A stretch of DNA of 64,000 nt from Candidatus Aenigmatarchaeota archaeon (GCA_016202815.1 JACQNZ010000004.1:57522-121521); one strand, 5' to 3'. Positions 12,482 to 27,673 are shown, numbered from the stretch's first letter. Numbers and translations are program-made. Notes: generated by a model from the letters alone, not told the origin.

Positions 12482-12931
12482 TTGTCTATGATACACAAGA
12501 AAAAACACAACGATGCGCCTGTGGGGCTTGTCCTAGTCTTGTTTTTTGCCGCTGCCATAATTTACCTTTTCGCCTCTTCTGACAGTGCGAAGGGCCAAAT
12601 TCCATCGTATGTCACAGGCGATGTGCGCGCGGTTTACGAATGGGCTAGAACACAGGAGGGGAACGATTTGCTGGAACAAATGCCATGTTACTGCGGCTGC
12701 AAGTATGAAGGCCACAAGCATGCCAGGCATTGCTTTTGGAGGGACGACGGGAGTTTTGACAGGCACGGCACAACCTGTTCGACATGCCTGGACATTGCGA
12801 AAAAAACCATGCAAATGAGCAAGCAGGGAAAGAGCGTTTGCGAGATACGAAACGAGATAGACAGGTTCTATGCTCCCAACGTTAACCTGGGGACTAACAC
12901 GCCGATGCCCAGGGGCTGCGCGGCGTCTTGA
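12482..12931 (+). CDS. Membrane-anchored Cys-rich protein with PCYCGC motif
   Basis: N-terminal TM helix then MPCYCGCKYEGHKHARHC and CSTC motifs. Confidence 0.45.
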   Translation: MSMIHKKKHNDAPVGLVLVLFFAAAIIYLFASSDSAKGQIPSYVTGDVRAVYEWARTQEGNDLLEQMPCYCGCKYEGHKHARHCFWRDDGSFDRHGTTCSTCLDIAKKTMQMSKQGKSVCEIRNEIDRFYAPNVNLGTNTPMPRGCAAS

Positions 12932-12956
12932 CCTGTCGGCATTTGAAGGTTTTTGC

Positions 12957-13664
12957 ATGTCAGAACAGCTTGCGTTGGGGATAGTGGTTGCGGCCGCGTT
13001 AGCTGACAGCATAAACCCGTGCGTATTCGGCGTGCTGATATTTTTGCTTGCGTATATGACCCGCGTTTTCAAAAACAAAAACAGGATGCTGCTGGCAGGA
13101 ATTATTTATATCATCGCGGTTTACATCACGTATTTCCTTCTGGGAGTGGGCATATTCACGCTCGCGTACACAGCGGGTTTTGCAAAGCAGTTTTATTGGT
13201 TCGCCGCAGTCGTTGCCATAGCGGCAGGCCTTTTTGAGATCAAGGATTTCTTCTGGTACGGCAAGGGTTTCTCGCTCCAGATAATACCCGGAGGGGCGGA
13301 GAGGATCAAGAGATACTCTAAGTTAATGGAAAGGATGGAAACGAAGCATCCGTTGTTGAGTTTGCTAGTGGCGGCTTTCCTGGGAGTTTTCGTGGTTTTC
13401 GTGGAGCTTCCGTGCACGGGTGCGCCTTACCTTGCGATATTGGGCATGCTGTCCAGCGGCGATTACGCCACAGGTGTTCCCCTACTCCTGATTTACAACC
13501 TTGTTTTCATACTGCCGCTGATTGTCATAGTCGGCCTTGTGTATGCGGGTTACACGTTCAAAACGCTCGAAAACTGGAGAAAAAAGCACAGGGCCCTGAT
13601 GAGGCTGCTTATCGGCCTGTTTTTGATGTCACTGGGCGCGTACATGATATGGGCGGTCATTTAA
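12957..13664 (+). CDS. DsbD/CcdA-like thiol-disulfide transfer membrane protein
   Basis: Polytopic membrane protein with paired conserved Cys in TM segments (SINPCVF and ELPCTGAPYL); start taken at ATG 12957 within the longer listed ORF. Confidence 0.55.
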   Translation: MSEQLALGIVVAAALADSINPCVFGVLIFLLAYMTRVFKNKNRMLLAGIIYIIAVYITYFLLGVGIFTLAYTAGFAKQFYWFAAVVAIAAGLFEIKDFFWYGKGFSLQIIPGGAERIKRYSKLMERMETKHPLLSLLVAAFLGVFVVFVELPCTGAPYLAILGMLSSGDYATGVPLLLIYNLVFILPLIVIVGLVYAGYTFKTLENWRKKHRALMRLLIGLFLMSLGAYMIWAVI

Positions 13665-14805
13665 GCGGTTTTAGGAATTTTTCCAGCCTGTCCATCGCTT
13701 TTTCCAGATTAACCACCGAGGCTGCGTAGCTTATCCTTATCCTTTTGCCGTCGCCGAATTCCGCTCCCGGGACAGTGGCCACGAGGTTTTTTTCCAGAAG
13801 TTGCGCGCTGAATTCTGCGGAATTTTTTGCGCCTTTTCCGAAAAATCCGGACACGTCAGGAAAAACATAGAACGCGCCTTTTGGTTTGTCGATATCAATG
13901 CCCATTTCATCCAATCTTTTGACAACAAAGTCCCGGCGTTTTTCAAACTCCTTTCCCATTGCTTCAACGCTGTCCTGCGGGCCTGTGATAGCCTCGAGCG
14001 CGGCTTTCTGCGCTATCGAATTGGTTCCGGAGGTAGTGTGGTTCTGTATGTTCAGCGCCGCTTTCGTTACGTCTTCGTGCGCGGCGGCATAACCTATGCG
14101 CCAGCCTGTCATAGCGTACGCCTTTGAAAATCCGTTGACTGTTATTGTCAAATCCCTGATCTCTTTTCCAAGCGATGCTATGCTGACATGTTCGGAGCCG
14201 TAAACGAATTTCTCGTATATCTCGTCGGATATCACATAGATTCCGCTTTCTATAGCAAGCCCAGCGATTTTTTCCAATTCTTTCCTGCCCATCACGCTGC
14301 CCGACGGATTGTTTGGGCTGTTTATGATCACGGCTTTTGTTTTCGGCGTTATAGCATTTGCCATGCCTTCAACGCTGTTTACCACAACAGGGTTTCCGCC
14401 GGCCAATCGGATTTGTCCGATGTAACTTACCCAGTACGGAGAGAACACGATGACCTCGTCCTTAGTCTCTACAACAGTTTGCGTGTAATTGTACAGCGAG
14501 TCTTTCGCCCCGCAAGACACAAGCACCTGGCCTGCGGAATAACCGATGCCGTTGTCTTTTTTTAATTTGTCTGCGATTGCCTGGCGTAACTCGGGCAGAC
14601 CTGCGACGGGCGTGTATTTCGTAAAGCCATCGTTCAGCGCCTTTATAGCCGCGTCTTTTATGTTTTGCGGCGTGTCGAAGTCCGGTTCGCCGACGCCGAG
14701 ATCTATGACGTCGATGCCGGATTTTTTCATCTGTTTAACTTTGTTTCCCAGTTCAAGGGTTGCGCTCGGTTTTATGGCCGACGTCCTGGCAGCTAAGGGT
14801 TTCAT
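13657..14805 (-). CDS. Aspartate/aromatic aminotransferase (class I PLP-dependent)
   Basis: NGFSKAYAMTGWRIGY lysine-containing PLP motif and overall AspAT-like architecture. Confidence 0.8.
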   Translation of the reverse strand: MKPLAARTSAIKPSATLELGNKVKQMKKSGIDVIDLGVGEPDFDTPQNIKDAAIKALNDGFTKYTPVAGLPELRQAIADKLKKDNGIGYSAGQVLVSCGAKDSLYNYTQTVVETKDEVIVFSPYWVSYIGQIRLAGGNPVVVNSVEGMANAITPKTKAVIINSPNNPSGSVMGRKELEKIAGLAIESGIYVISDEIYEKFVYGSEHVSIASLGKEIRDLTITVNGFSKAYAMTGWRIGYAAAHEDVTKAALNIQNHTTSGTNSIAQKAALEAITGPQDSVEAMGKEFEKRRDFVVKRLDEMGIDIDKPKGAFYVFPDVSGFFGKGAKNSAEFSAQLLEKNLVATVPGAEFGDGKRIRISYAASVVNLEKAMDRLEKFLKPLK

Positions 14806-14846
14806 AGATCAAAATAATAACGCGAACAATAAAAGCGCGTTGTTTT

Positions 14847-15353
14847 TCACAACAAGTCCAGTTCCAGGCGGACCAGCGACCTGATGTTCCTTATAACCTG
14901 CGCCGCTTCGTGACCTTCATCAATTAGGTTAGGCAGGTCGTCGCCGTGGTCGAACCTGTACCTTCCGTTGGACATGCGAGCACTGAAAACCTGGTTGGGT
15001 GTGAACAGGTGGCGTGGCCGCCAGCCGAGAAGATAATCGCTTCTTGCAAATTCCTGAAGGTCTTCGCGTGAAAAGGTTACGTCGACTGGATGCGTGTGGA
15101 ATTGCGTCAGGAAAAAACCGTTTGCCATGTTTTGCTCCAGGAAACCGTCGATTATTTGTATCATGTCAGGGTCGTCTGTGACCTTGAGTTTTTCTCCCCG
15201 CCCCGTGCGGTAAGACGCTATTACCAGATTATTTCCGGCCGAAGGATACCCCTGCGGTTGGGTGTTGCATATTAAAAAACCGGAGTGCTCTGTTCCTGAT
15301 ACGGAAAGCCTGCGCAGCTTTTCATACTCAACGATTCGCATCAGGTATGCCAT
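14847..15353 (-). CDS. JAB/MPN-like metalloprotease domain protein (putative)
   Basis: FHTHPVDVTFSREDL resembles the JAMM HxH-x-S-xxD motif, spacing one residue off canonical. Confidence 0.35.
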   Translation of the reverse strand: MAYLMRIVEYEKLRRLSVSGTEHSGFLICNTQPQGYPSAGNNLVIASYRTGRGEKLKVTDDPDMIQIIDGFLEQNMANGFFLTQFHTHPVDVTFSREDLQEFARSDYLLGWRPRHLFTPNQVFSARMSNGRYRFDHGDDLPNLIDEGHEAAQVIRNIRSLVRLELDLL

Positions 15354-15485
15354 GCTTAATCAACAAGCCGGAGGAATTTAAGCGCAAAATCAGCAGAACT
15401 CGCAGGCCTTCCTGCTCTTGTAGACTTTCCTTTTGCGTTTTTTCGCAGCCATAGTTATTAATTATCCGGCACCAGTCTTATTGTT

Positions 15486-16352
15486 ATGCCTGTAAATGCC
15501 GGATACGATTATTTCGCTGCACAAAAGAAATATCAGGAAGCCAAGACATTAGATGAGAAAATACGTGCGCTAGAAGAGCTTATTAGAGTGTCGCCCGGCC
15601 ACAAGGGGGCTGAAAATGTGTTGGCTCAGTTGAAAACTAAGCTTTCCAAGTTGAAGTCCCAGAGGGTGTCGGCAAAAAAGAAATCCGGCGGGCGCGTCAC
15701 AACAGTCCCGAAAACCGGGGCTGCGCAGGTCTGCATTGTCGGCTTTGCCAATTCCGGCAAATCCGAACTACTGAAAGCGCTGACAGGGATCGGAGAGCCG
15801 TCGCCTACACCTTATTCAACAAAATCGCCGCGCGTCGGCATGATGCTGTACGAGGACGTCCAGATACAAATTGTGGAGATCCCGTCCAGCATGCAGCCGG
15901 AATTTTTATCCATCGCGCACAATTCCGAGCTGGTTGTTTTTTTATACGATGCCGCGAAGCCCGAAGACGTTGAAAGGCTGATGGAAACAGCCGAGCGGGA
16001 GGATTTGAAAAACGTTTTGTGGGTTGCAAATGTCATTTCGGCCAAGAAAGCGGTGGGCTTTGCAGTAAACGCGTCGACAGGCGAGAACGTGGATGAACTG
16101 AAACGGGCGGTCTGGCACAGGCTAAGGCTTGTGCGGATCTATACGAAAGTTGCCGGGAAACCGGCCGAAACGAGGCCGATGACGCTGCCGAAAGGCTGTA
16201 CGGTCCGCGACGTCGCCCGCGACGTCCACAAGGATTTTTTGAAAAATTTCAAGTTCGCCCGCGTGTGGGGCTCTGCGAAATTCCCGGGAGCGCAGGTCGG
16301 GCTGGACCATATTGTGAAAGACAAGGATACCATTGAGATCCACGTGAGCTGA
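15486..16352 (+). CDS. DRG/Obg-like GTP-binding protein with C-terminal TGS domain
   Basis: G1-like CIVGFANSGKSELL; C-terminal ARVWGSAKFPGAQVGLDHIVKDKDTIEIH is TGS-like; G3 DxxG appears degenerate. Confidence 0.5.
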   Translation: MPVNAGYDYFAAQKKYQEAKTLDEKIRALEELIRVSPGHKGAENVLAQLKTKLSKLKSQRVSAKKKSGGRVTTVPKTGAAQVCIVGFANSGKSELLKALTGIGEPSPTPYSTKSPRVGMMLYEDVQIQIVEIPSSMQPEFLSIAHNSELVVFLYDAAKPEDVERLMETAEREDLKNVLWVANVISAKKAVGFAVNASTGENVDELKRAVWHRLRLVRIYTKVAGKPAETRPMTLPKGCTVRDVARDVHKDFLKNFKFARVWGSAKFPGAQVGLDHIVKDKDTIEIHVS

Positions 16353-16353
16353 T

Positions 16354-16815
16354 TTGTTGGAAAGAAAATTCATCTTTGCGTTGGCTTTTGTTTTGGTTCT
16401 GTTATTTTTGCTGCCGAAACCGTTGAAGGAAAAGACAATCCATTTTCACCCGGGCGGCAATAACGTTGCTTTATCCGTTAAAATAGCGGACACCGGCGAG
16501 GCGAGAGCAGGGGGCCTGATGTTTGTTAAATCGCTTGGCGAAGCGGAGGGCATGCTTTTCGTTTTTCCGGACGAGGCCAAAAGAGAGTTCTGGATGAAAA
16601 ATACACCGGTTCCGTTGGACATGATTTTCGTTTCTTCCAATGGCACGGCTGTCGGCGTGGTTGAAAACGCAATGCCATGTGAAAAAGATCCGTGCCAAAC
16701 TTATTCTGTCAATTCACCGTCCAAATTCGTCGTAGAAACGAACGCCGGTTTTGCAAAGGAGAACGGCATAGGCATTGGCACGCCTCTAAGCGATTTATAT
16801 CAGACAGGCTGGTAA
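16354..16815 (+). CDS. DUF192-family protein
   Basis: GLMFVKSLGEAEGMLFVFPDE...FWMKNTPVPLDMIF pattern. Confidence 0.55.
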   Translation: MLERKFIFALAFVLVLLFLLPKPLKEKTIHFHPGGNNVALSVKIADTGEARAGGLMFVKSLGEAEGMLFVFPDEAKREFWMKNTPVPLDMIFVSSNGTAVGVVENAMPCEKDPCQTYSVNSPSKFVVETNAGFAKENGIGIGTPLSDLYQTGW

Positions 16816-16822
16816 GAATCTT

Positions 16823-17431
16823 ATGGAAAGCGTGAAAGTAAGGAGCATGATGACAACCAGAGTCTCCACAGTAGGCGCGAACCAGACTATAATGGAAGCG
16901 TCGCAGATGATGGGGCGTGAGAAAGTCAATTGCCTTGTTGTCATGGCCGGCCGAAGCCCTGCCGGCATGATCACGGACTCTGACATAACAAGGTATGTTG
17001 TGAGCAAGGGGCTGGATCCGAAGGAAACAAAAGTCAGCGAGGTAATGTCGTCGCCGCTTGTTTTTGTTAGCCCTGAAGACAGCATTGAAAAGGCCAGGAA
17101 AACGCTTTCCGGCCATAAGGTAAACAGGCTTGCTGTCATTGAAAACGGCAACCTTGCCGGGATTATAACAGACGCGGACATTTCGAGAGTGCGAACCGCA
17201 GATAAAATTGATCAGCCACAATCCCCGTTCGACAATAACTTTTCCGAGGGCATGACCAAAAAGCCGGACTGGGACCGGGGAAGCGGATTCTGCGATTTTT
17301 GCGGCAACCACGAGGACGACCTTGTAACATCAGGTGACGAGCGGCTTTGCAGGACCTGTATGGAGCGAAAAAGACAGGCCGGACCATATTGGGTGAGCAG
17401 GAAAAAATCAGGCGAGTCATTTACAGGTTAA
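16823..17431 (+). CDS. CBS-pair domain protein with C-terminal zinc ribbon
   Basis: Two CBS-like repeats followed by CDFCG...CRTC. Confidence 0.6.
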   Translation: MESVKVRSMMTTRVSTVGANQTIMEASQMMGREKVNCLVVMAGRSPAGMITDSDITRYVVSKGLDPKETKVSEVMSSPLVFVSPEDSIEKARKTLSGHKVNRLAVIENGNLAGIITDADISRVRTADKIDQPQSPFDNNFSEGMTKKPDWDRGSGFCDFCGNHEDDLVTSGDERLCRTCMERKRQAGPYWVSRKKSGESFTG

Positions 17432-17435
17432 GGCG

Positions 17436-17705
17436 TTACGCAGCAGAGCGGACTGCGATTTTTGCCGGCTTGTACCTGGCCATAACCGCGTCGGCTTCCT
17501 CCTTTTCCCCGATAGAGCAAAGCTCTTCGTACAACCCGAATATGCCGCGGCTTAGCATTCTCCGCCCCGAACTGTTTCTGTAACCCATTACTTCAGGCGG
17601 GTTGTTCTTGCGTACGATTTGTTCATAATCAAGCATCCTAACAAGCGAGCTGACGTACACGGCTTTCATTCCGGCTCGCGTTCTTTCGTCAATTTTTGTT
17701 GTCAT
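17436..17705 (-). CDS. Hypothetical protein
   Basis: 89 aa ORF, no motif recognised. Confidence 0.3.
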   Translation of the reverse strand: MTTKIDERTRAGMKAVYVSSLVRMLDYEQIVRKNNPPEVMGYRNSSGRRMLSRGIFGLYEELCSIGEKEEADAVMARYKPAKIAVRSAA

Positions 17706-17811
17706 AATTAATTATTCGACCCGGGCGTATTTAACGGGGATGGTTAAACGGGTTGTTGGTTTGGAAAGTTGCCTTTATATTTCTGGGTTTCGGCGATTAA
17801 ACTGATCGGGT

Positions 17812-18750
17812 ATGCTGGCAGATGAGCGTTGGGAACAACTGAAAATATCCGTGGCCTATTACAGGACGGGTATTTTAGACAACCTGCGGACAGTGGCAGG
17901 CAACAAATACAGCAGGTTTGCAGACTATTCCAGAGGCATTCGTGTTGCGTACACAGACATGGAACACGTCGAATCTTACACGGCCAAGGTTCGTGAAGCG
18001 ACCGGTGGTGATGTACTACAATCTTACGCGGAACATGACAATATCACAGGTTTTCCTATGCTGACCGACCATGCCAGGATGGATGTCACGAAAGACGGGA
18101 ATGTCAGGATGGAGCCTAAGAGATTCGTCGGGTCTTGCGGTCCTATGATATTTACGCGCGAGGGCCTTGAAGACCGTTCAAAACCTTCCGCGTATGGGGA
18201 AGAATACGGGCCGTTGAGGTGTTTCCTGCATGAGCTCGGACACTTTGTCGCTTGGTTCTCGGCTAATATGCCAAAACATTTTGTTGGGTATGCAATAGAA
18301 CGCGGGGTCGCAAACAAGAATGGGATGAGCATTTACCGAAAACCGGACACGGACAAACAGGTCGATCCTGCATGTTTGCCTTTCATGAGACTTGGCGCTG
18401 CCGTATACATCCTGAACGAAACCGATGCTGAATATTTTGCCGTGAACACACTTTGCAGGATTGCGGGCGTGCCGCCCAAGGCCACTGAAACTTGGAAAAG
18501 CAGGGACATGGCGGTTGCTACAGGGCTTTTGCCAGCGGAGTTGAGGCGCATGTTTGAAACCGATCTTGACGCGATTAGCGCCATGCTTCGGGAAAATGGA
18601 TTTGGACTGGGCATAACGCCTGAGCTAAGGCATTTCGTTGCTGAAATGAAAAAAGTTCCGGTAATCAAAAGGCCGGTTACTTCTGGTGTTCCGGCTTTTG
18701 ACGACGCCTACGAAACCACTACGGCTGGTTTGTTGTTAGGGCTTTATTGA
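17812..18750 (+). CDS. Hypothetical protein with HExxH motif
   Basis: FLHELGHFVAWF suggests a zinc metallopeptidase-like site. Confidence 0.4.
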   Translation: MLADERWEQLKISVAYYRTGILDNLRTVAGNKYSRFADYSRGIRVAYTDMEHVESYTAKVREATGGDVLQSYAEHDNITGFPMLTDHARMDVTKDGNVRMEPKRFVGSCGPMIFTREGLEDRSKPSAYGEEYGPLRCFLHELGHFVAWFSANMPKHFVGYAIERGVANKNGMSIYRKPDTDKQVDPACLPFMRLGAAVYILNETDAEYFAVNTLCRIAGVPPKATETWKSRDMAVATGLLPAELRRMFETDLDAISAMLRENGFGLGITPELRHFVAEMKKVPVIKRPVTSGVPAFDDAYETTTAGLLLGLY

Positions 18751-18791
18751 AAGACTGTTTGAATCACAGGAATCGGGTATAAATCCGGAGT

Positions 18792-19487
18792 TTGGAAATA
18801 ATAAAGAAGGACGATCAGATGAGTGAAGAACAAATACGTTTATCGGCATCGTCTCTTGGGTTGATGCTCGACTGTGAACGCTGCTTCTGGCTGAAAATTG
18901 TTAAAAAAGTTGATAGACCTAACGGACCTTTTCCTAGTTTGCCAGGCGGCATCGACGCTGTTATGAAGAAACACTTTGATGCCTATCGCAGCAAAGGGCT
19001 ACCGCCTGAACTGGTTGGGAAAGTTGACGGCAAGCTGTTTGATGACATTGAACTGATTGACAAGTGGAGGAATTGGAGGACAGGACTATCGGTTGTAGAC
19101 AATAATATAAAATTAGTTGCGGCGTTTGATGACCTGCTTGTTAACGATGGGAAGTTTATTCCATTTGACGTCAAAACAAAGGGCTGGAAACCGAAGGTAG
19201 ACGCCAAGGATCATTATCAGCACCAAATGGATATCTATGCATACGTGTTGTTGAGAAACGGATACGAGATCTCAGATCACGCTTACCTAGCTTTCTATTA
19301 CCCAGATATTGCCAATGGTGACGGTTCGATACAGTTCATGACGGATGTTGTCAAGGTTGATATTAAACTAGACCATGCGGTCCAGATGCTGAAAGATGCT
19401 GCTAAGGTTATCGAAGGCAGAGAGCCGAAAGCGGCTGATAAATGCGAGTTTTGCGGGTGGAATACAGCTCTAAATAAATGTCAATAA
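18792..19487 (+). CDS. Cas4-like PD-(D/E)xK nuclease with Fe-S cluster cysteines
   Basis: N-terminal CERCFW, nuclease motifs AAFDDLLV / IPFDVKTKG / QHQMDIYAY, C-terminal CEFCGW...C; arrangement matches the Cas4/RecB-nuclease fold. Confidence 0.6.
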   Translation: MEIIKKDDQMSEEQIRLSASSLGLMLDCERCFWLKIVKKVDRPNGPFPSLPGGIDAVMKKHFDAYRSKGLPPELVGKVDGKLFDDIELIDKWRNWRTGLSVVDNNIKLVAAFDDLLVNDGKFIPFDVKTKGWKPKVDAKDHYQHQMDIYAYVLLRNGYEISDHAYLAFYYPDIANGDGSIQFMTDVVKVDIKLDHAVQMLKDAAKVIEGREPKAADKCEFCGWNTALNKCQ

Positions 19488-19864
19488 ACAGTGTTATTAT
19501 CATGGACGATCAGACTACGATTAATGAATTAAAGGGGCTCGTAAGAAAATTTTGTGAAGAGAGGGATTGGGATAAATATCACAATCCTAAAGACCTTGCT
19601 ATTGGAATCATAACAGAATCTTCTGAACTCTTAGAACATTTTAGATTCAAAACAAATGAAGAAACAGAAGAAATGTTTGAGAACGTGAAAAATAGAAAGG
19701 AGATATCAGAGGAGCTATCTGATATATTATATTTTGTTCTTAGGCTAGCGCAAAAATACAGCATAGATTTGTCAGAAGAGTTAAAAGCTAAGATAGAAAA
19801 AAACGGTAAAAAATACCCTATCGAAAAATCGAAAGGATTGAATAAAAAGTATACGGAGCTATAA
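19478..19864 (+). CDS. MazG-like nucleotide pyrophosphohydrolase
   Basis: All-alpha NTP-PPase pattern IITESSELLEHF...EELSDILYFVLRLAQKYSIDL; overlaps upstream gene by 10 nt. Confidence 0.65.
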   Translation: MSINSVIIMDDQTTINELKGLVRKFCEERDWDKYHNPKDLAIGIITESSELLEHFRFKTNEETEEMFENVKNRKEISEELSDILYFVLRLAQKYSIDLSEELKAKIEKNGKKYPIEKSKGLNKKYTEL

Positions 19865-19867
19865 AAT

Positions 19868-21736
19868 TTGAGATTATACGAAGGCACTGTACAAGAGTTC
19901 AAGAAAGATGTGATTGAAAATCGAATAGCTGACATTCTTTCAGAAAACTATTTTATTCAAATTAAAAAAAGGGTAACCCCGTCGGAACAGCGGTCTTGGC
20001 AGGTCTCTCTTAGGGTACTAAAAGATACGCTTGACATATCTGGTTTATTACAAAATAAAATTGTTATCGAAAATAGGCTTCCGTACACAGAGAGGAGGAT
20101 AGATGTGCTTCTATTTGGAAAAGGATATGACGGAACTGATAGGATTGTGCTAATAGAACTGAAGCAATGGTCAAATGATAATGTTTTTGATGATAACATA
20201 GATGGAAATGTTGAAGTCTATTTCGGTAAGAACAAAATACATAGAGAACACCCTTCACTACAGGTACAAGGATATGTCATTGATTTGCAGGATTTCATGA
20301 AATTTTTTAGTGAGATTCCTAGGGTTAATTTAGAAGGGTGCTCTTATTGTCACAATTACAGCAAAAAAGATAACGCTATATTGTTCGCTGAAAGATTTTC
20401 TGAACCCCTGGAAAAATACCCGCTTTTTTCAAAGGAAGATGCTTATGAACTTGGAAACTATCTAAAAGAAAGACTTTCGATTGATCCGGGTTTCGAAGTG
20501 TTTAATAGATTTGATAATAGTGAGATATTTCCGTCTAAGAAACTGTTGGATCACATCGGGGATATGATCAATAAACAGCAAATGTTCAATTTGATCGACG
20601 ATCAAATAGCAGCCTATAATGTGATTATGGATAGAGCAAAAAAACAGGTAAAGCGAAAAGAGAAGTCTGTTATAATTGTAAAGGGGGGTCCAGGCACTGG
20701 AAAATCGGTGATAGCATTGGAAGTTATGGGCGAACTGCTTAGAAAAGGAAAAAAAGTTTTTCATGCCACGGGTTCATCGGCATTTACAAAGACCTTACGA
20801 GATTTGATAGGAAAAGAGAGAAAAAGTGCAGAGAACTTTTTTAAATTCTTTTATGCTTTTACCAAAGCACCAGCAGACGATATAGATGTGCTCATATGTG
20901 ATGAAGCACACAGAATCAGGAGTAATAGCAATGACTGGGGGGTGCCCAGCATGTACAAATCAAAAAATCCTCAAATTGATGATCTTATCAGACCTGCAAA
21001 ACTTTCCGTGTTTTTTATAGATGAATATCAGGTGGTCAGACCCAATGAGGTGGGCAGTATAGCATTGATTAAAGAGTCTGCCAAAAAACTTGGTGTTAAG
21101 GATTCGGAAATATTTGAATTCGAATTAAAAACACAGTTCAGATGTTCCGGCTCTGATACTTATCTGCAATGGTTGGAGAATACGCTCGGTATAAGGGAAT
21201 CTGAAAATGTAATTTTGAATACAGATCTGATGGAATTTAAAATATTCAATTCACCACAAGAATTTTATGACGCCATAAAGCAGAAAAATAAAGAAAAACC
21301 CAACTGCGCGAGAATAGTAGCTGGTTTTTGCTGGCCTTGGAGCAAACCGAATAAAGACGGCACGTTGGTGAATGATGTGGTTATCGATGGTTTTAGTATG
21401 CCGTGGGAAAAGAAAGATGAATTTTGGAAATGGGCCAGAGACTCGTCAGGAATGGAACAGGTGGGTACAGTTTATACATCGCAGGGGTTTGAGTTTGATT
21501 ACATAGGTGTAATATTCGGAAAAGATCTCGTTTATGATTCCACCAGCCAAAAATGGGAATGCAAACCAGAAAATTCGTACGATAATACTGCGAAAAGAGG
21601 AAATTCAAAGTTTACTGAACACCTTAAGAATGTTTACCGTGTTTTGATGTCAAGAGCACACAAAGGTTGTTATGTTTATTTCATGGACAAATCTACGGAA
21701 GAATTTTTCAAATCACGAATAGAAGGATCTAAATAG
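19868..21736 (+). CDS. PD-(D/E)xK nuclease fused to SF1-type ATPase/helicase (DUF2075-like)
   Basis: N-terminal RIDVLLF...IVLIELKQW nuclease-like motif; Walker A KGGPGTGKSV; Walker B/DEAH-like ICDEAHRI; C-terminal TVYTSQGFEFDYIGVIFG helicase motif. Confidence 0.65.
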   Translation: MRLYEGTVQEFKKDVIENRIADILSENYFIQIKKRVTPSEQRSWQVSLRVLKDTLDISGLLQNKIVIENRLPYTERRIDVLLFGKGYDGTDRIVLIELKQWSNDNVFDDNIDGNVEVYFGKNKIHREHPSLQVQGYVIDLQDFMKFFSEIPRVNLEGCSYCHNYSKKDNAILFAERFSEPLEKYPLFSKEDAYELGNYLKERLSIDPGFEVFNRFDNSEIFPSKKLLDHIGDMINKQQMFNLIDDQIAAYNVIMDRAKKQVKRKEKSVIIVKGGPGTGKSVIALEVMGELLRKGKKVFHATGSSAFTKTLRDLIGKERKSAENFFKFFYAFTKAPADDIDVLICDEAHRIRSNSNDWGVPSMYKSKNPQIDDLIRPAKLSVFFIDEYQVVRPNEVGSIALIKESAKKLGVKDSEIFEFELKTQFRCSGSDTYLQWLENTLGIRESENVILNTDLMEFKIFNSPQEFYDAIKQKNKEKPNCARIVAGFCWPWSKPNKDGTLVNDVVIDGFSMPWEKKDEFWKWARDSSGMEQVGTVYTSQGFEFDYIGVIFGKDLVYDSTSQKWECKPENSYDNTAKRGNSKFTEHLKNVYRVLMSRAHKGCYVYFMDKSTEEFFKSRIEGSK

Positions 21737-21791
21737 GAATATTATCGGAGTATACGGGGGTTATAATTCAGAGTATTGATTGAATAATCAA

Positions 21792-22163
21792 TCATCTTTT
21801 TTTATATCCAAAATATTTTTCATAGGTTCTATGGGAAATTGCATCAAGGACTATTGCCAGTATTTCGATCTCGTTTGTGTGTAAAGTGTATATCAACCGC
21901 CAGCCATCAAAAAGATCAACTTTCCAAAGATTGTTCACATCCGCCATTGTGATGTATCTTTTTGGTATGTATTTTTTGGGTATCTGAATCCCTGAAATGG
22001 GATCAATTTTGAGTTGGTCAATGGCCACCTTGATAGAGCTGAACAATTTTTGTTTTTCAGAATCGACTATGCCCCGTTTTGTTTCATTTTTGACCTCTTC
22101 GTGCAATTCATGTAATTCAGCAGCAACTTCTTTTCTGTTTCTCACCCTGATTCGTTTAATCAC
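21792..22163 (-). CDS. RelE/ParE-family toxin (putative)
   Basis: C-terminal LWKVDLFDGWRLIYTLHTNEIEILAIVLDAISHRTYEKY fits the RelE/ParE pattern. Confidence 0.5.
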   Translation of the reverse strand: MIKRIRVRNRKEVAAELHELHEEVKNETKRGIVDSEKQKLFSSIKVAIDQLKIDPISGIQIPKKYIPKRYITMADVNNLWKVDLFDGWRLIYTLHTNEIEILAIVLDAISHRTYEKYFGYKKR

Positions 22164-22435
22164 GTTTCAGTGCCTTCTCTGATTATTTTGTCAAGTTTAG
22201 GACTAGGGTTGTATGTCCAAATAACACCCTTATGACTATCAATGATCATACCATGATCCTCAAAGTAACTGAGAATTACATTCAATGTCTGATGCATGAT
22301 TTGAACCGGTAACTTTCGTTTGATTTCTTCTCTGCTTATAGCAACGTCAGAGTCCTTTAGAACTTTCTCTACCATACGGACAGTTCTTAGAGTCGGTGAG
22401 TGCAAAATCTCTTGAGTTTGAAGCTTGTTCTTCAT
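22160..22435 (-). CDS. Putative antitoxin
   Basis: 91 aa ORF immediately upstream of and overlapping the toxin by 4 nt; classic TA arrangement. Confidence 0.4.
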   Translation of the reverse strand: MKNKLQTQEILHSPTLRTVRMVEKVLKDSDVAISREEIKRKLPVQIMHQTLNVILSYFEDHGMIIDSHKGVIWTYNPSPKLDKIIREGTET

Positions 22436-22582
22436 AGTTATATCATTATACAGATATCTATATATAGTTATACATAGTAGTAATAATCGTTAAATGTGAC
22501 CTAAGTAGACGTTTTGGGTTTTATTTTCTGTGATTAAAGTCGCCTTGTTGTGATTTTAGTCGTTGTTTTCGGTTACTTTAAG

Positions 22583-22607
22583 CACAAGGCTCCCCCCCCC
22601 CGCGGCG
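22583..22607. repeat. Direct repeat copy 1: ACAAGGCT + C(10) + GCG
   Basis: Same 8 bp core plus poly-C and GCG recurs at 26676-26693. Confidence 0.6.
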
Positions 22608-22980
22608 TTGTAGAGGAAGTCTACTAAATTGACGTACATTAGATACGGAATGGGGACTTTAGGTACAAAACGCCGAAAATAGTTGTCTATTTATTTATCA
22701 AGCAATGAATGGTGATTATTGTCGTCTTAATCGACGGTTTGGCTCTGATCTTCCTGAAAAATAGGGGGATCTTAAATGAAATCGAGAACTTATTCGGGCG
22801 GATCAGAGCTTTGGCAGTTTTAAAAAACGTTGATTGACGTATTTTATTATTTAAATGTCTAAGGTCTAATTATAAAGCGAGATGATCATGGTAAACTGCC
22901 ATGCTATCACCTACAAATAGACTTTATAGGCTGTAATCAGCTTCGCTGGTCGCCTATAGGGGATGAGGCGCGTCGCGCAT

Positions 22981-23631
22981 TTATTTTTTATATTTTTTAA
23001 ATAATTCAATGAAACATTTCGGATCAGGACTTATGTTAATGGTTCTGAAATAATTAAAATTTCTAAGGGTTTCTGCATTTATTTTTCTATGGGATGCTGC
23101 AATGTAATCTGCGAATTTTAGAAGTTTTGTATGCTTTGCATTGCTAACGGAAAAATCAAAATTTCTATTGAAAGAATTACTTATTCTCCTACAACTGTCT
23201 AGCGCTTTGTTTATGTTCATCCAGCTTTCTTCACAAAATACTATATCGTATTTAAGTTCTTGTTTAGATTCTGGAAATGTCATTTGACGCAGTAAAGTGA
23301 AATAATAAATTGCTATTAATCTTTCTTTGAAAAAAGCCTCCTCACCATAATTTCTTTTATAATTAACCCAATCTTGTTGACTTATGGATATTGATCGCAT
23401 TCTAATCTTCCTTTCATCAAAAAATCTTATTATTCTTTCAAGATCTGTTGCGTCTAATTTTACTCCTTTCCATTTAGATCTTTCAAATTCTTTCAAATGT
23501 TCAGAAAATTCCTTTTCTATTTTAGTTATCGAATAAGTTGGTGAGGAAATAGAACCTATAAAGATTTTGTCATACGGTACTCCACTGATATCTATTGCGA
23601 TCTTAATTGGTACTTGTCCCATACAAATCAC
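22981..23631 (-). CDS. Hypothetical protein
   Basis: 216 aa, AT-rich, no motif recognised. Confidence 0.35.
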   Translation of the reverse strand: MICMGQVPIKIAIDISGVPYDKIFIGSISSPTYSITKIEKEFSEHLKEFERSKWKGVKLDATDLERIIRFFDERKIRMRSISISQQDWVNYKRNYGEEAFFKERLIAIYYFTLLRQMTFPESKQELKYDIVFCEESWMNINKALDSCRRISNSFNRNFDFSVSNAKHTKLLKFADYIAASHRKINAETLRNFNYFRTINISPDPKCFIELFKKYKK

Positions 23632-23714
23632 CTGTTTAGAGGGTTATATTAAAGCGGTGGTAGTTGTCTGAATTATCAACTATCTTTTAAATCAGTCAAC
23701 TTCGTTTATTTTTA

Positions 23715-24689
23715 CTAATCACTAATACTCATATTCAGATTTATACTATAATCTTGAGATTCTTTGATCAGTACGCAGATGTTGTGTGATAATATCTTGC
23801 ACAGTAGTTCATTCTCTTGTGCAGTTCTATTCTTTGATTTCAACGAATCTCCAAACTTAGCTTTAATCATAGAGAACGTGCTCTCGATGTTGCTTCTTCT
23901 ATGATAGTGAGCCATAAATTCCGGTTGCCTGAATTTGAAATAGTGATACATTTTATGCCAAATTGGCGAGCCTTTGCTCTTTCCTGTGGTGTTTACTTTA
24001 AACGGAATGAACGCTTCCACGCCCAACTTATCAACGATTTTGTAATTTTCTCTTGATAGATAGGCTTTGTCCGCCGAAACCTCTTCTACGTTGAAATCTT
24101 GTACGGTTTCTTCTACCAATGGACTGAATTGTTTAATATCCGCTCCGTTTTCATCTGTGATTCTAACAGCGGTTATCAAGTTTGTTTTTGTTCCACAGAT
24201 CGCATGACACTTCAGCCATTTATGTTTCCTTGATAATCCATGCTTTACGATGCAGTATTCCGTAAATCTCGTTGTTCTGAAGCCTGTTGAATCTACGGCG
24301 AACTGAGTTTCTAAATCCTTCAAAGGTAAAGCTGTGAGAGTTATCAATCTGTGGAGTATTGGTGTTATTGTTGGATTGTTCAAAACCTTAGAGGTAGCTG
24401 TGAAATGCGGTGATTTCTCGATTATTTCATCTTCTTCGGCATTATCGAACAGACCGTTAGCCCTTCGGCACGACATCATAGAGTAGACTTTCTTGATAGA
24501 ACAAAACAACAAATCTCTAAGAGGTAAGGTTGGTCTGCCGAATTTGTATTCCGGTTCTTCGACACCTTCGAGTAAGTCTTTCAGAAGAACGTCAAACTGG
24601 TTTAACTCCATACACTGTGCTCTATTGTAAGCTGGCCAGTTCTGGGTGCTTTGTTGTTTCCAGAGGTCTTGTAACGGATTGTTTTTCAT
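23715..24689 (-). CDS. IS4/IS5-family DDE transposase
   Basis: DDE_Tnp_1-like C-terminal block YHRRSNIESTFSMIKAKFGDSL...KNRTAQENELLCKILSHNICVL. Confidence 0.75.
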   Translation of the reverse strand: MKNNPLQDLWKQQSTQNWPAYNRAQCMELNQFDVLLKDLLEGVEEPEYKFGRPTLPLRDLLFCSIKKVYSMMSCRRANGLFDNAEEDEIIEKSPHFTATSKVLNNPTITPILHRLITLTALPLKDLETQFAVDSTGFRTTRFTEYCIVKHGLSRKHKWLKCHAICGTKTNLITAVRITDENGADIKQFSPLVEETVQDFNVEEVSADKAYLSRENYKIVDKLGVEAFIPFKVNTTGKSKGSPIWHKMYHYFKFRQPEFMAHYHRRSNIESTFSMIKAKFGDSLKSKNRTAQENELLCKILSHNICVLIKESQDYSINLNMSISD

Positions 24690-24746
24690 AGTGTTATTAG
24701 GTACCTATAAATATTTAAATAGATAGGTACCGAAAGATTATATGTT

Positions 24747-24914
24747 ATGAAGCTTCAAAAACAGCTTTCTCGCAAAGCCGGAAACGTTGTATATCCCAAG
24801 TGGGTCATTGTAATATCCCCTAAAGATATAGATAAACTGGGCTGGAAAGAAGGTGTTGAACTGGAATCAGAAACAACACAAAACAAGTTATTGTTGAAGC
24901 CTAAGAAAAATTAA
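24747..24914 (+). CDS. AbrB/SpoVT-like small DNA-binding protein (putative)
   Basis: 55 aa ORF below the track cutoff: MKLQKQLSRKAGNVVYPKWVIVISPKDIDKLGWKEGVELESE... resembles swapped-hairpin AbrB/MazE-type domain. Confidence 0.3.
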   Translation: MKLQKQLSRKAGNVVYPKWVIVISPKDIDKLGWKEGVELESETTQNKLLLKPKKN

Positions 24915-24932
24915 ATTTTCGTGCCCTTAAAA

Positions 24933-26120
24933 TTATTTACTGTTTGTTAATCTGTTTAACTCTTTTATCATTTCGGATATTGGAATTTTTTTATCGGCTC
25001 GCACTAGTTTTTCTATAAGTTCTATTTGAGTTTGGGTAAATCTGGGGCTAAGGTTTTTACGTAGATGATTTTCGAGTAACCATAAATCTTCAAACGATCT
25101 CTCATTACTCCAAGGTGCATTTCTTATGTATTTTTGTATCATCTTCTCTGTATAGGCTATTTCTATTGGGATTATGTAAATCTCGGGACACTTGCTCCTA
25201 AGGAAAGATTCTATGGTGTTTGGTGTAACCGAATAAACTTCACTCAGAATTTCGTCTTCTATTATTTTTTTGTATCTTTTCCTTGATGGTTCATTTTCGT
25301 GTCCTTCTTTAAACAGGCTGTAAACCGTTGTACCTACATGACTTACAACTTCTCCTGTTTGATGACCGCTTTCTAACCATCCTTGAAAATCTTTGTTCTT
25401 CAGGTCTATGAAATCCACGAGTTTTATGCTATTAGAACCTCCTCCTTGTCTCCAGTTTCTTATCCATCCATCACAAACCAAGCTCCATATAGGTAAGAGA
25501 CGGGAATTAATTATTTTTCTATCACCGGAAAATATCATGGGCACAGCTACACAGAATACGCGTTTGCCCGTCATCATCTTGAAGAACACTATTTTCTTAC
25601 ATATGGAATCGAACGCTGGATATTGTCCATAATGAACTCCGTAGAATAGTGCCAAATGATCAAATTTCTCGGATTTAGCTGCCGGTATTATTTGATTCTG
25701 TATGACGACATCTTCTAACTTGTAAGACACCTCGAGTATTATGTCTTTTTTAGAAAACCCTCTTTTCAGGATTTCGGCCAGTTCTATTTTTTCAACTACA
25801 TCGTACTCCGTTTCGTCTTTGAAGTATGGCAATATTATGAACTCTCCGTTCATTTTTATCTGCTCTTCAACGACACTCTTCAATATTTTCTTCGAGAATG
25901 TAAGATACGAACAATCGGGATAATTAATTACTCCCATATTCTCATTTATCTGATCATTGACTTTTTCGAACGGCTGATCTTGATTAGTTTTGTTGAAGAA
26001 AACTTGTCTTTCCACGAATTCTATTTGCATGTCGTCCAGATCGGATGTCTTGAACATCCTAAACGGAGCGCGTAAAACTTTTCCACTTTTAGTTTGTAAA
26101 TTATCTTCCATCTTTAACAT
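24933..26120 (-). CDS. Hypothetical protein, 395 aa, no recognisable family
   Basis: Long ORF last in a three-gene minus-strand operon. Confidence 0.4.
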   Translation of the reverse strand: MLKMEDNLQTKSGKVLRAPFRMFKTSDLDDMQIEFVERQVFFNKTNQDQPFEKVNDQINENMGVINYPDCSYLTFSKKILKSVVEEQIKMNGEFIILPYFKDETEYDVVEKIELAEILKRGFSKKDIILEVSYKLEDVVIQNQIIPAAKSEKFDHLALFYGVHYGQYPAFDSICKKIVFFKMMTGKRVFCVAVPMIFSGDRKIINSRLLPIWSLVCDGWIRNWRQGGGSNSIKLVDFIDLKNKDFQGWLESGHQTGEVVSHVGTTVYSLFKEGHENEPSRKRYKKIIEDEILSEVYSVTPNTIESFLRSKCPEIYIIPIEIAYTEKMIQKYIRNAPWSNERSFEDLWLLENHLRKNLSPRFTQTQIELIEKLVRADKKIPISEMIKELNRLTNSK

Positions 26121-26406
26121 CTTCCTCTCTCACTACGAAGGTGAAAAGTTTAAGGTAGTCTGACTGTTTCATCCTTTTCAACGATTCGGCGTATCTCTGA
26201 ACTGTAACACGGTGTATACCAAGCTTGTTCGCAAGAATTGTGTTATTATAACCTTTCGCTGAGAGTAAGAATAAATTTTTGAGCAATGCCATATTCAATG
26301 AATGTTCCCTGCAAATTCTATTGATTTCTTCCTCTTCTTTTAGTGAAGATAACAGTTTGCTCATACTACTAAGTGTAGCATCCTGATATTTAAATATATC
26401 GGTCAT
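26101..26406 (-). CDS. HTH transcriptional regulator
   Basis: ILANKLGIHRVTVQRYAESLKR helix-turn-helix segment; overlaps downstream gene by 20 nt. Confidence 0.45.
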   Translation of the reverse strand: MTDIFKYQDATLSSMSKLLSSLKEEEEINRICREHSLNMALLKNLFLLSAKGYNNTILANKLGIHRVTVQRYAESLKRMKQSDYLKLFTFVVREEDVKDGR

Positions 26407-26585
26407 GTTTCCTCGTCTTCTGGGTACAGGATATACACAATTTTTCCGATGTCTTCTTGCGGAAAATTAACTTTACCACTGGACTCGTTATTTTTCGAAA
26501 TTGTAACCGTTCTTATTTGGCCGAATTTTATCTGATCGAAAGAAAACGAACCCTTGAACTTTCCATTGATCTTAATTGATTTCAT
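26403..26585 (-). CDS. Small hypothetical protein
   Basis: 60 aa ORF overlapping the HTH gene start by 4 nt. Confidence 0.25.
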   Translation of the reverse strand: MKSIKINGKFKGSFSFDQIKFGQIRTVTISKNNESSGKVNFPQEDIGKIVYILYPEDEET

Positions 26586-26675
26586 ATAGCTAAAATTAGC
26601 TATTAATAGCTATAAAGCTTTTGTATTGACTTTAGCTACAAACAAGCCACTTTAGCTACAAAATCGACTTCTGCT

Positions 26676-26693
26676 ACAAGGCTCCCCCCCGCG
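26676..26693. repeat. Direct repeat copy 2: ACAAGGCT + C(7) + GCG
   Basis: Matches copy 1 in the same orientation, about 4.1 kb away. Confidence 0.6.
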
Positions 26694-27043
26694 ATAACTT
26701 TATATACAAGGTATGATATAGTAGGATATAGTGGTATAATGTCGTATACGCTAATGCAATTGCCTGACGGGGGCGGGACGCAATGCGTTGCGCGCAGGCC
26801 TGCCCCCGTTTTCATGCTCACTGCCAGCACAAGTGAGAAGCTGGTTTCTCGGCAAGTAGAATTTCTTTCTACGCCAGCCATGCCGTTTGGCCAGTTTGTA
26901 GTTGGGAACGGACGGCGTCCGTTCCAGTTTCAGGGAGGTGGACTTTATGTAAAATTGGCCGGAGAGTATAAACACGGAAATCCGTGGGAAAGCAGACAGG
27001 GTATGCTTTTATGCCGCGGGTTCCCGGAAACATGAAACACAGA

Positions 27044-27673
27044 TCACTTTTCGTCCCGCATTCTTACCGCATTTGATTTCGCTTTCTCGACGTCTATGCC
27101 GCAGGTTTCCAGCTTTTCCAGGGTATCTTTTTTGACCATTTCGTTAAACAGTTTTACCGCTTTGTCGAATCCACAATACCGGTCCGATGACACCATGTTG
27201 AAAGAATGCTCTATTTCGTCCCATGTTTTTATGTCCGCCTCGTTGTGCTGTATTAAAACTTCGATCCTGTCGAGCGCTTTGACAAATTTTGATTCCGTGG
27301 TCTGTGAACTTTCATATTCTTGCCAGAGGCCGTAGATTTCATCACCGGCATTATTTCCAAGCATTTTTTTGATATTTTCAATCGCTTTTCGCTCGTTCTT
27401 TATTTTTTCTTCTTTCCTGTTTTCCTCAAAGGCCGGAACATCCCCGGCTTCGGCTTCTACAATGTCGTGTATAATAACCATCTTTAGGACTTTTTCCATA
27501 TTGGTGGAATTTTTCAGGTAAGGCCCAAGAAGAATCGCCATTAAGGCCGTTCTCCAGGTGTGCTCGGCAACGCTTTCCTGTCTTCCGTCGGATAACCAGC
27601 TGTGCCGAAGTTCCGTTTTCAATTTTTCGGCAATGTGCAGGAATTGAAGTATTCTTGAGAATTCCTCTTCCAT
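27044..27673 (-). CDS. HD-domain phosphohydrolase (YfbR-like 5'-deoxynucleotidase family)
   Basis: VAEHTWRTALMA...IIHDIVEAEAGDVP HD motif. Confidence 0.65.
   Translation of the reverse strand: MEEEFSRILQFLHIAEKLKTELRHSWLSDGRQESVAEHTWRTALMAILLGPYLKNSTNMEKVLKMVIIHDIVEAEAGDVPAFEENRKEEKIKNERKAIENIKKMLGNNAGDEIYGLWQEYESSQTTESKFVKALDRIEVLIQHNEADIKTWDEIEHSFNMVSSDRYCGFDKAVKLFNEMVKKDTLEKLETCGIDVEKAKSNAVRMRDEK

Follow-up and report, generated by a model that had tools for sequence, protein, structure and literature searches.

Genomic hotspots filled with defence-type and selfish genes are a well-known kind of object. Among the proteins that act against phages, Nhi from Staphylococcus (Bari et al. 2022) and the Nhi-like proteins (Millman et al. 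2022) are encoded by single genes and combine a nuclease domain with a following DUF2075 domain. The locus described here contains a relative of these proteins. It lies in a 64,000-nucleotide (nt) stretch of DNA from a Candidatus Aenigmatarchaeota archaeon (GCA_016202815.1, JACQNZ010000004.1:57522-121521), hereafter the window. The locus is most probably a mosaic defence-type island whose parts were acquired independently, in several events, at a hypervariable hotspot between a conserved 89-amino-acid (aa) gene and the promoter of a conserved gene that resembles a non-coding RNA (ncRNA). Two of its modules, a MazG-like/DUF2075 gene pair and an operon encoding proteins of 60, 101 and 395 aa, are undescribed in the literature searched; for the pair, searches for DUF2075 or Nhi-like with MazG, for MazG with Schlafen and defence, and for PDC-S41 found nothing. 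The mobilome and immunity of DPANN archaea are poorly known, and the locus offers a clean empty-site comparison for such an island in a DPANN archaeon.

An earlier note on this DNA, judging by eye, had described the region from 18,750 to 27,043 as an AT-rich island of horizontally acquired DNA with defence-like, toxin-antitoxin (TA) and insertion sequence (IS) content. The AT-richness is borne out when G+C content (GC) is computed, at 0.36 in the island compared to 0.49 in its flanks. Sliding-window GC is 0.31–0.39 across approximately 19.5–26.6 kb and 0.49–0.50 on either side, and mean GC is 0.363 for positions 19,000–26,700 compared to 0.495 for 7,500–18,750 and 0.489 for 27,044–64,000. The 13 island intervals of 1 kb have a GC of 0.312–0.385, or z = -4.3 to -7.2 relative to 90 host intervals of 1 kb (mean 0.492, standard deviation 0.025, minimum 0.407). 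Tetranucleotide usage is also strongly deviant. Composition-normalised correlations are 0.95–0.98 among three host segments and only 0.45–0.47 between island and host, and in 2-kb intervals the correlation drops from ~0.87 to ~0.3 at the island. GC at third codon positions (GC3) is 0.22–0.43 in island genes and 0.47–0.66 in flanking genes.

The proposed span holds for the low-GC core, 19,470–26,670, and has to be redrawn at both edges. The steepest fall in GC is found at 19,470, at the start of the MazG-like gene, and not at 18,750, while the steepest rise is at 26,670 and the right edge is placed at about 26.63–26.69 kb. The last stretch, 26,697–27,043, has a host-like GC of 0.50 and is conserved in relatives, and therefore lies outside the island. 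On the left, the nuclease gene (18,792–19,458) has an intermediate GC of 0.44, and the 312-aa gene before it is host-like at 0.50.

Comparison with related genomes shows what the site looks like when it is unoccupied. The DRG-type GTPase gene at 15,486–16,352 has its closest relatives, 72–88% identical, exclusively in metagenome-assembled genomes (MAGs) assigned to Candidatus Aenigmatarchaeota or labelled “uncultured archaeon”. Searches of the relatives with the window proteins (tblastn) reveal a conserved backbone consisting of the GTPase, DUF192, (CBS) and 89-aa genes, followed by (HD), EamA, HAD and topoisomerase genes. In all four close relatives, which like the other compared loci are designated here by L numbers (L006, L007, L009 and L010), the whole 17.7–26.63 kb segment of the window is missing at the syntenic site. 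In L006, L007 and L010, the 89-aa gene (17,436–17,705 in the window) is followed within ~50–210 bp by two to three ~20-nt repeats of the ACTTTAGCTACAAA type, a G or C run, a TATA box (TTTATATA) and the counterpart of 26,697–27,043. L009 has no 89-aa gene; its DUF192-side flank is followed by the repeat cluster, the TATA box and the ncRNA-like stretch upstream of EamA. Over all four relatives, these elements follow the 89-aa gene or the DUF192-side flank within 70–750 bp, and an HD or EamA gene comes after them. Because the junction is tight in the four relatives, 17.7–26.63 kb is an insertion relative to them, and the variable region defined by synteny begins at ~17.7 kb, which takes in the 312-aa gene of host-like GC.

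In a more distant relative, L011, whose GTPase is 72% identical, another low-GC island occupies this locus. This island shares with the window the IS5 transposase (85% aa identity), a 55-aa gene, a second IS5 copy and the Cas4-like nuclease, while its remaining cargo, including DUF3800 and proteasome-like proteins, differs. The presence of other cargo at the same place indicates that the site is a hotspot. Far from being conserved in all relatives, the block is absent from four of them, and this absence together with the foreign composition sustains the earlier reading of horizontally acquired accessory DNA with defence-like, TA and IS content.

The same evidence bears on whether the block could be ancestral and deleted in the sampled relatives, with its AT-richness due to local mutational bias or relaxed selection. 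The host-like GC of the 312-aa gene and the intermediate GC of the nuclease gene would fit such a history, as would the nuclease homologues that are 73–82% identical in several Aenigmatarchaeota, near core-gene divergence, and the low GC of L011 at this locus. However, none of the four close relatives has the block and all show an identical tight junction, the cargo in L011 is different, and the GC3 of the island genes falls below that of the flanks. Moreover, the MazG-like and DUF2075 proteins are 54–76% identical to those of Omnitrophota, Candidate Phyla Radiation (CPR) bacteria, Nanoarchaeota and Micrarchaeota, a level much higher than cross-domain vertical inheritance would lead one to expect. 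An ancestral block is thus very unlikely.

An artefact of assembly or binning, in which a low-GC segment was mis-joined to an archaeal contig, would be in keeping with the source being a MAG and with the shortness of the independent Logan contigs, whose breaks fall at the IS and the C-run. The junctions are nonetheless recovered independently. Logan contigs L002–L004, which come from different runs, extend across the left junctions and lead from the CBS or 312-aa genes, by way of the nuclease, to the MazG-like and DUF2075 genes. L090 covers window 24,532–26,677 and joins the transposase and the operon to the native-type ACTTTAGCTACAAA repeats. Genes identical to those of the window are present in Logan assemblies of runs SRR12113383-90, and the modules also occur on contigs of related Aenigmatarchaeota. 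A chimera is unlikely, and an artefact as the explanation of the whole pattern extremely so.

Within the inserted segment, the modules from left to right are the 312-aa ORFan; an IS5 stub with the Cas4-like nuclease; the MazG-like and DUF2075 genes; the TA pair; and a segment between two repeat clusters, W1 and W2, which holds the 216-aa ORFan, an IS5-family element and the 60/101/395-aa operon (Table 1). The nearest relative of each module is found in a different genome and breakpoints lie between the modules, which argues for a mosaic; the homology breakpoints fall on GC change points. In addition, the two halves of the island (19.47–22.44 and 22.44–26.63 kb) have a tetranucleotide correlation of 0.48 and are no more alike than either is to the host, consistent with separate origins. 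The island therefore appears to be a patchwork of at least four to five separately acquired pieces and not one element.

The alternative is a single integrated element, such as a provirus, plasmid or integrative element, that spans the low-GC stretch between attachment (att) repeats. Low GC throughout is what this would produce, and 15-nt direct repeats with flanking similarity are present at 22,584 and 26,676. The right end adjoins an RNA-like gene, as many integrative elements adjoin tRNA genes, and a contig that shares modules with the island and encodes ParB (L098) indicates that a plasmid-like source exists. Yet only the right 4 kb of the island lies between the repeats, the halves differ in tetranucleotide signature, and family scans of the island open reading frames (ORFs) detected no integrase, replication, capsid or conjugation gene. 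The nearest relatives of the modules also lie in different genomes with breakpoints in between, and none lies in a viral contig. As an account of the whole island a single element is largely refuted, and we regard it as unlikely. A specifically viral origin was rejected, with no close relatives in IMG/VR and no structural match in BFVD.

Table 1. Features of the island and its right border in window coordinates
Feature	Position	Strand	Remarks
312-aa ORFan with HExxH motif (FLHELGHF)	17812–18750	+	GC 0.50; variable by synteny, not by composition
IS5-family transposase 3′ stub	18761–18826	+	Last 21 codons and stop, ESQESGINPEFGNNKEGRSDE then stop; read from sequence
Solo Cas4-like PD-(D/E)XK nuclease, 222 aa	18819–19487	+	CxxC...CxxC; GC 0.44
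MazG-like all-alpha nucleoside triphosphate (NTP) pyrophosphohydrolase, 128 aa	19478–19864	+	PF12643, 3.2e-15
Nhi-like nuclease-helicase, 622 aa	19868–21736	+	N-terminal PD-(D/E)XK and DUF2075/SLFN-group-3 superfamily 1 (SF1) helicase; PF09848, 9.2e-88; weak NERD
ParE/RelE-superfamily toxin candidate, 123 aa	21792–22163	-	Family shown via homologues
Putative antitoxin partner, 91 aa	22160–22435	-	Upstream of toxin gene, 4-nt overlap
Repeat cluster W1	22526–22670	+	~10-nt GACTTTAR / YTAAAGTC submotifs, ACAAGGCT, C-run, GGCGTTGT
216-aa ORFan	22981–23631	-	GC 0.29, island minimum
IS5-family DDE transposase, 324 aa	23715–24689	-	Apparently intact; DDE_Tnp_1, 1e-24
AbrB/MazE-like protein, 55 aa	24747–24914	+	Divergent from transposase gene; MazE_antitoxin E = 0.0055, below cutoff
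Conserved three-gene operon	24933–26585	-	60 aa, 101-aa helix-turn-helix (HTH) and 395-aa TIM-barrel proteins
395-aa TIM-barrel protein gene	24933–26120	-	C-terminal helical domain
101-aa HTH protein gene	26101–26406	-
60-aa gene	26403–26585	-
Repeat cluster W2, native copy	26629–26693	+	Three ~20-nt ACTTTAGCTACAAA, ACAAGGCT, C-run; directly upstream of TATA box
Host ncRNA-like feature bordering the island	26697–27043	+	TATA box TTTATATA, then ~330 nt of conserved non-coding sequence

The module closest to a described antiviral system is the MazG-like/DUF2075 pair. In 121 DUF2075 sequences, D79, E97-L-K99 (ExK), the Walker A motif GGPGTGKS and the DEAH motif are each at least 98% conserved, and the conservation of D79 with E97-x-K99 amounts to a PD-(D/E)XK signature. 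The acidic E..E / E..D residues of the MazG-like protein are likewise conserved in 31 sequences. The DUF2075 protein has more than 7000 homologues, of which the best 120 are 60–76% identical over the full length and belong to Omnitrophota, CPR bacteria, Syntrophaceae, Nanoarchaeota, Micrarchaeota and Pacearchaeota; loci fetched from metagenomes are as little as 54% identical. At the DNA level, window 19,542–21,726 is 70–71% identical to L042 and L043.

The two genes are closely linked. In 35 of the 38 loci examined with a complete DUF2075 gene, the gene directly before it, in the same orientation, is MazG-like; in one locus the MazG-like gene lies downstream and in two it is missing. These loci range from 0.31 to 0.63 in GC and their MazG-like proteins from 36 to 68% in identity, which means that the linkage has outlasted long divergence and transfer between domains. 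The pair has spread among bacteria with reduced genomes as well as among DPANN archaea. More distant DUF2075 genes (35–40% identity), carried on Hymenobacter and Methanosphaera plasmids, lack a MazG-like neighbour. The earlier note had grouped nuclease, MazG and helicase into one cassette; all three genes are present, but the conserved unit consists of the MazG-like and DUF2075 genes only. A Cas4-like nuclease is found within 5 kb in only ~5 of the 38 loci, with varying position and orientation. The nuclease was accordingly rejected as the third gene of the cassette, in view also of its different GC and the homology break at 19,458, and the two-gene unit appears to have inserted at the 3′ terminus of a nuclease gene that was already there.

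Some relatives of the pair carry additional parts. The DUF2075 protein is ~790 aa long in 14 of 33 distinct loci measured (about 40%), and in the three such proteins that were scanned the extra part is a C-terminal Peptidase_S24 domain (LexA-like, autocleaving); the entries concerned are P0100, P0015, P0040 and L049–L056, L058, L060–L063, L066 and L079. The S24 domain suggests that the nuclease-helicase may be controlled by DNA damage or RecA. An N-terminal S24 fusion and a MazG fusion were both ruled out, as the domain is C-terminal. Six of the 33 loci have an optional third gene of ~232 aa, without a Pfam domain, that overlaps the DUF2075 stop codon (L044 7853–8551, L050 3997–4689, L062 7382–8089, L064 3379–4074, L065 2243–2950 and L068 6847–7548). 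This gene is absent from the window and is unrelated to the Cas4-like nuclease.

Compared to Nhi and the Nhi-like proteins, the window protein has the same N-terminal PD-(D/E)XK nuclease followed by a DUF2075 SF1 helicase, with intact catalytic motifs, and the Nhi model of PADLOC matches its helicase part (1.9e-12, residues 257–476 only). Further PADLOC matches are PDC-S41 (6.8e-21, partial) and AbiO (1.6e-10). It differs from Nhi in that its clade is not stand-alone, a MazG-like gene preceding it in 35 of 38 loci, in that many relatives of its clade carry the C-terminal S24 domain, and in that similarity to Nhi is limited to the ATPase core. The most likely role would be antiviral, that of an Nhi-like nuclease-helicase by which invading DNA would be unwound and cleaved. 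Its obligate NTP-pyrophosphohydrolase partner would deplete or clean the (d)NTP pool, or remove a nucleotide signal. The MazG-like protein and the PD-(D/E)XK-DUF2075 protein could form an undescribed two-gene antiviral system in DPANN archaea, CPR bacteria and Omnitrophota, and could represent a new version of a known antiviral mechanism, one that ties nucleotide-pool chemistry to DNA degradation.

The nuclease to the left of the pair has a different history. Its match to PDDEXK_1 has an E-value of 1e-7, to PADLOC Cas4 8.7e-9 and to phrog_31195 1.6e-43, while the Cas4 equivalog TIGR00372 gives 24.6 bits, under its cutoff of 65. Four cysteines (CERC...CEFC) and D..DVK..QxxxY residues can be read from the sequence. 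No cas genes lie next to it, Cas1 (3499–4689) being 14 kb away in another block. Its homologues are 73–82% identical in several Aenigmatarchaeota, with the next best at ~50%. In L011 and L098 the nuclease gene lies directly downstream of a DDE transposase gene and overlaps it, and in L096 a transposase gene lies ~900 bp upstream with two small ORFs in between. The window retains a remnant of this arrangement: the ATG at 18,819 overlaps an IS5 stub that starts right after the 312-aa stop codon and matches the C-terminus of the L011 transposase (16850–17842). DNA of the nuclease unit is 72–77% identical to L011, L096 and L098 (L011 17777–18480 aligning with window 18761–19458, and L098 5333–6033 with window 18772–19463) and stops being so at 19,458–19,464. 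The homology ends ~25 nt before the stop codon, at the GC collapse, and the C-terminal tail differs beyond that point. The nuclease therefore appears to go with a truncated IS5 unit and not with the MazG-like/DUF2075 pair. The 312-aa protein further left has no match in Pfam, NCBIfam, PHROG or PDB and no relatives in metagenome or viral (IMG/VR) scans; four Logan assemblies contain an identical gene.

To the right of the pair lie two small overlapping genes that had been taken for a RelE-type TA pair. This holds at the level of the ParE/RelE superfamily and by way of homologues, while the partner belongs to no recognisable antitoxin family. By itself, the 123-aa protein reaches no Pfam threshold (YoeB_toxin E = 0.022). 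An exhaustive HMMER search yielded 450 homologues, and among the 78 that were scanned, 25 match ParE_toxin, six YoeB_toxin and five ParE_like; the family profile matches YoeB in the PDB (8yxv, E = 0.0013). The 91-aa partner has no match in Pfam, PADLOC, NCBIfam or PHROG family scans. It occurs with a toxin homologue in L042, L043 and L098, and in L098, where positions 1–441 correspond to window 22069–22510 at 85% nt identity, the partner is 92% identical. The pair would stabilise the island or abort infection. A PDB sequence search with the 123-, 312- and 216-aa proteins gave nothing significant.

L098 (JAIYRH010000044.1, 1–14048) is a 16.7-kb low-GC Aenigmatarchaeota contig that encodes ParB, a proteasome-like protein and an IS5 transposase with a Cas4-like nuclease. 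It also carries a type III-like restriction-modification (R-M) system, a PIN TA pair, Vsr, HinfI with a C5 methylase, and a TA pair 87–92% identical in aa sequence to that of the window. It could be a plasmid-like carrier of island modules. Other defence genes near related modules include an MmeI-like R-M system in L096, TIR in L042 and HEPN/nucleotidyltransferase in L043. Part of the island DNA may have entered by IS5 transposition or IS-mediated rearrangement. Another part may have entered by a Campbell-type event in which homologous clusters on incoming circular DNA recombined with the native repeat cluster, a route that would leave direct cluster copies such as W1 and W2. L098, which encodes ParB and shares the TA pair and the clusters, would be the kind of element able to deliver such modules.

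The clusters themselves are informative about the right half of the island. W2 marks the right end, at the GC rise at 26,670, and a homologous cluster precedes the TATA box of the ncRNA-like gene in L006, L007, L009 and L010. W1 is a partial copy of this native cluster without TATA box and RNA (nhmmer E = 1e-26). An exact 15-nt direct repeat, ACAAGGCTCCCCCCC, is found at 22584 and 26676 inside the longer similar arrays of W1 and W2. W1 is a hybrid: 22,526–22,590 is 89% identical to cluster B of L098 (11546–11610) and 22,597–22,670 is 85% identical to cluster A of L011 (12344–12417), with the switch between the halves at the C-run. In L011, two clusters bracket the DUF3800, IS5, 55-aa and proteasome-like genes; in L098, one stands between the TA pair and a p60-methyltransferase pair and another between the PIN pair and Vsr/HinfI. 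In the window as in L011 and L098, the clusters mark the borders between modules. This arrangement fits recombination at the clusters, of either the site-specific or the homologous kind. The cargo had been called repeat-bounded, and direct clusters do bracket 22.5–26.7 kb, but they are copies of a native promoter-proximal cluster and no recombinase accompanies them. A scan for bacterial promoters and terminators gave results at chance level and is irrelevant for an archaeon.

The ncRNA-like region next to W2 has counterparts of ~330–520 nt ending in a T-run (L006 11815–12370, L007 14105–14560, L009 3045–3490, L010 13340–13710). Its indels among relatives are not multiples of three, and RNAalifold predicts 76 pairs, 17 of them with compensatory changes. 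Rfam models, including those of RNase P and the signal recognition particle (SRP), assigned no family to the window or to L007 at gathering or E-value thresholds. RNase P RNA and SRP RNA, considered on motif resemblance, were dropped as the motifs are not common to all five sequences. The stretch at 26.70–27.04 kb is probably an unclassified structured RNA of Aenigmatarchaeota. The clusters at module boundaries and the native copy by the ncRNA suggest that islands in these tiny genomes may be assembled without an island-encoded integrase. In its strongest form, which we consider unlikely, the clusters, with GACTTTAR submotifs around a homopolymeric or palindromic core and then GGCGTTGT, may be recombination sites of an undescribed cassette-capture platform in Aenigmatarchaeota, in which the native copy would dock circular modules by means of a recombinase encoded elsewhere. 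If this were true, TA pairs, R-M systems, the MazG/Nhi-like pair and the TIM-barrel operon would be inserted and shuffled before the ncRNA gene.

The segment between W1 and W2 begins with the 216-aa ORFan, whose protein has no match in Pfam, PADLOC, NCBIfam, PHROGs, PDB or viral contigs; compared with the L011 DUF3800 protein at the same position, it proved not to be homologous. The IS transposase anticipated by the earlier note follows, in addition to the separate 3′ stub on the left. Its best NCBIfam model is transpos_IS5_2 (9.3e-36, 123.8 bits, under the cutoff of 140), and it is 85% identical in aa sequence to the transposase of L011 and 62–63% identical to the second L011 copy and those of L096 and L098. 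Candidate imperfect inverted repeats at 23589–23613 and 24701–24725 (25 nt, 76% complementary) are not convincing as IS ends, and no target-site duplication was identified around the element. The 55-aa protein is 61% identical to L011 14458–14625, which is also beside a transposase gene, and DNA homology of the transposase/55-aa unit to L011 covers window 23794–24853. Between these divergent genes, a near-perfect palindrome, GGTACCTATAAATATTTAAATAGATAGGTACC, at 24701–24732 is conserved in L011 and may be an operator or an IS end.

The operon that completes the segment recurs in other genomes. In L092, L093 and L094, a homologue of the 101-aa HTH gene again precedes the 395-aa gene, and an unmatched ORF of 59–82 aa precedes that. 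The operon neighbours a C5 DNA methylase gene in L094 and a DDE transposase gene in L093, and a homologue of the 60-aa gene precedes an N6/N4 methyltransferase gene in L098. The 395-aa protein has 13 database relatives at 35–53% identity, save one identical entry from a Candidatus Aenigmarchaeota MAG. It has no Pfam or NCBIfam match, tRNA-guanine transglycosylase (TGT) families included, and none of the 13 relatives has a Pfam domain. AlphaFold2, given the 13-sequence alignment, predicts an alpha/beta barrel with a C-terminal helical domain (predicted local distance difference test 92, predicted TM-score 0.91). Comparisons of the model with unrelated TIM barrels gave at most 11.9. A Foldseek search against the PDB ranks generic TIM barrels at the top with weak E-values and TGTs not first, and a BFVD structural search gave no match. 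No conserved Cys/His cluster of the zinc-binding kind is present among the invariant columns of the alignment. The protein thus has a confident predicted fold and no sequence family, with its nearest structural neighbours given as nucleic-acid base-exchange enzymes. As the weakest of the functional proposals made here, it might be a TGT/DpdA-like nucleic-acid base-exchange enzyme under a small HTH regulator.

Several observations weigh against a mosaic island of defence type assembled at a hotspot. Scans of the island ORFs with Pfam and NCBIfam detected no integrase or recombinase domain, and viral contigs in IMG/VR hold no close relatives of the DUF2075, 312-, 395- and 216-aa and nuclease proteins. 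PADLOC models match the DUF2075 protein only in part, and none of the PADLOC systems includes a MazG partner. The 312-aa gene, with its host-like GC, could be an ancestral gene lost in the relatives. The clusters lie mostly 5′ of leftward genes and may therefore be simple operators or promoters, and no cluster is found at the left end of the island (17.7 kb), although simple Campbell integration predicts one. W2 is most like the native copy of the relatives, and the 15-nt identity between W1 and W2 could be the result of gene conversion instead of integration.

Two neighbouring regions also deserve mention. A left low-GC block at 1–6.6 kb holds Cas1 (3499–4689, Pfam 8e-63). It is closed at the GC rise at 6,640 by a tRNA-Pro(CGG) gene on the minus strand (6639–6766), which contains a 53-nt intron, was missed by ARAGORN with default settings and found with the intron search, and is 89% identical to L011 5786–5925. 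This tRNA is probably the integration target of a putative casposon. The earlier separation of the island from this block stands, since ~11 kb of syntenic host genes lie between the two and the Cas1 block has its own tRNA-Pro border. A tRNA at the island border was looked for with ARAGORN, with and without introns, and none was found; the sole tRNA of the window is the one at 6.6 kb. On the right, an HD-domain gene (HD_3, 1.7e-49; 27044–27673, minus strand) of intermediate GC, 0.43, adjoins the ncRNA-like region, and of the four close relatives only L007 has this gene, so that it too is variable.

Several of the modules can be set beside described systems. The nuclease resembles the solo Cas4 proteins of mobile elements in its PD-(D/E)XK core and four cysteines, its lack of cas neighbours and its adjoining transposase genes; it differs from them in falling below the Cas4 equivalog cutoff and in forming a recurrent unit with an IS5-type transposase that overlaps its start. 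Like RelE/ParE/YoeB type II TA systems, the 123-aa/91-aa module pairs a small toxin of this superfamily with an overlapping small partner upstream, and the pair is conserved elsewhere. Here the toxin has an N-terminal extension of ~40 aa and the partner is outside the described antitoxin families. In contrast to TGT, DpdA and Cap10, the 395-aa protein has no TGT sequence match and no obvious zinc-binding cysteines, and possesses an extra C-terminal helical domain, with ~60-aa and ~100-aa (HTH) genes always before it. The repeat clusters recall the arrays of integrons and att cassettes in being homologous, directly oriented intergenic elements of 100–150 bp between gene modules, with one copy fixed beside a conserved chromosomal gene; unlike those of integrons, they lack the attC core GTTRRRY and are accompanied by no integrase among the island ORFs, and since they usually lie in promoter regions, a regulatory role is just as likely.

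As a whole, the locus shares with defence and genomic islands a foreign composition, absence in relatives, the co-occurrence of a nuclease-helicase with TA and IS genes, and a border at an RNA-like gene, and R-M, PIN, TIR and HEPN genes are found at its sister loci in related genomes. The locus differs from such islands in its lack of an integrase, its border at an ncRNA-like region instead of a tRNA, its DPANN host and its patchwork build.

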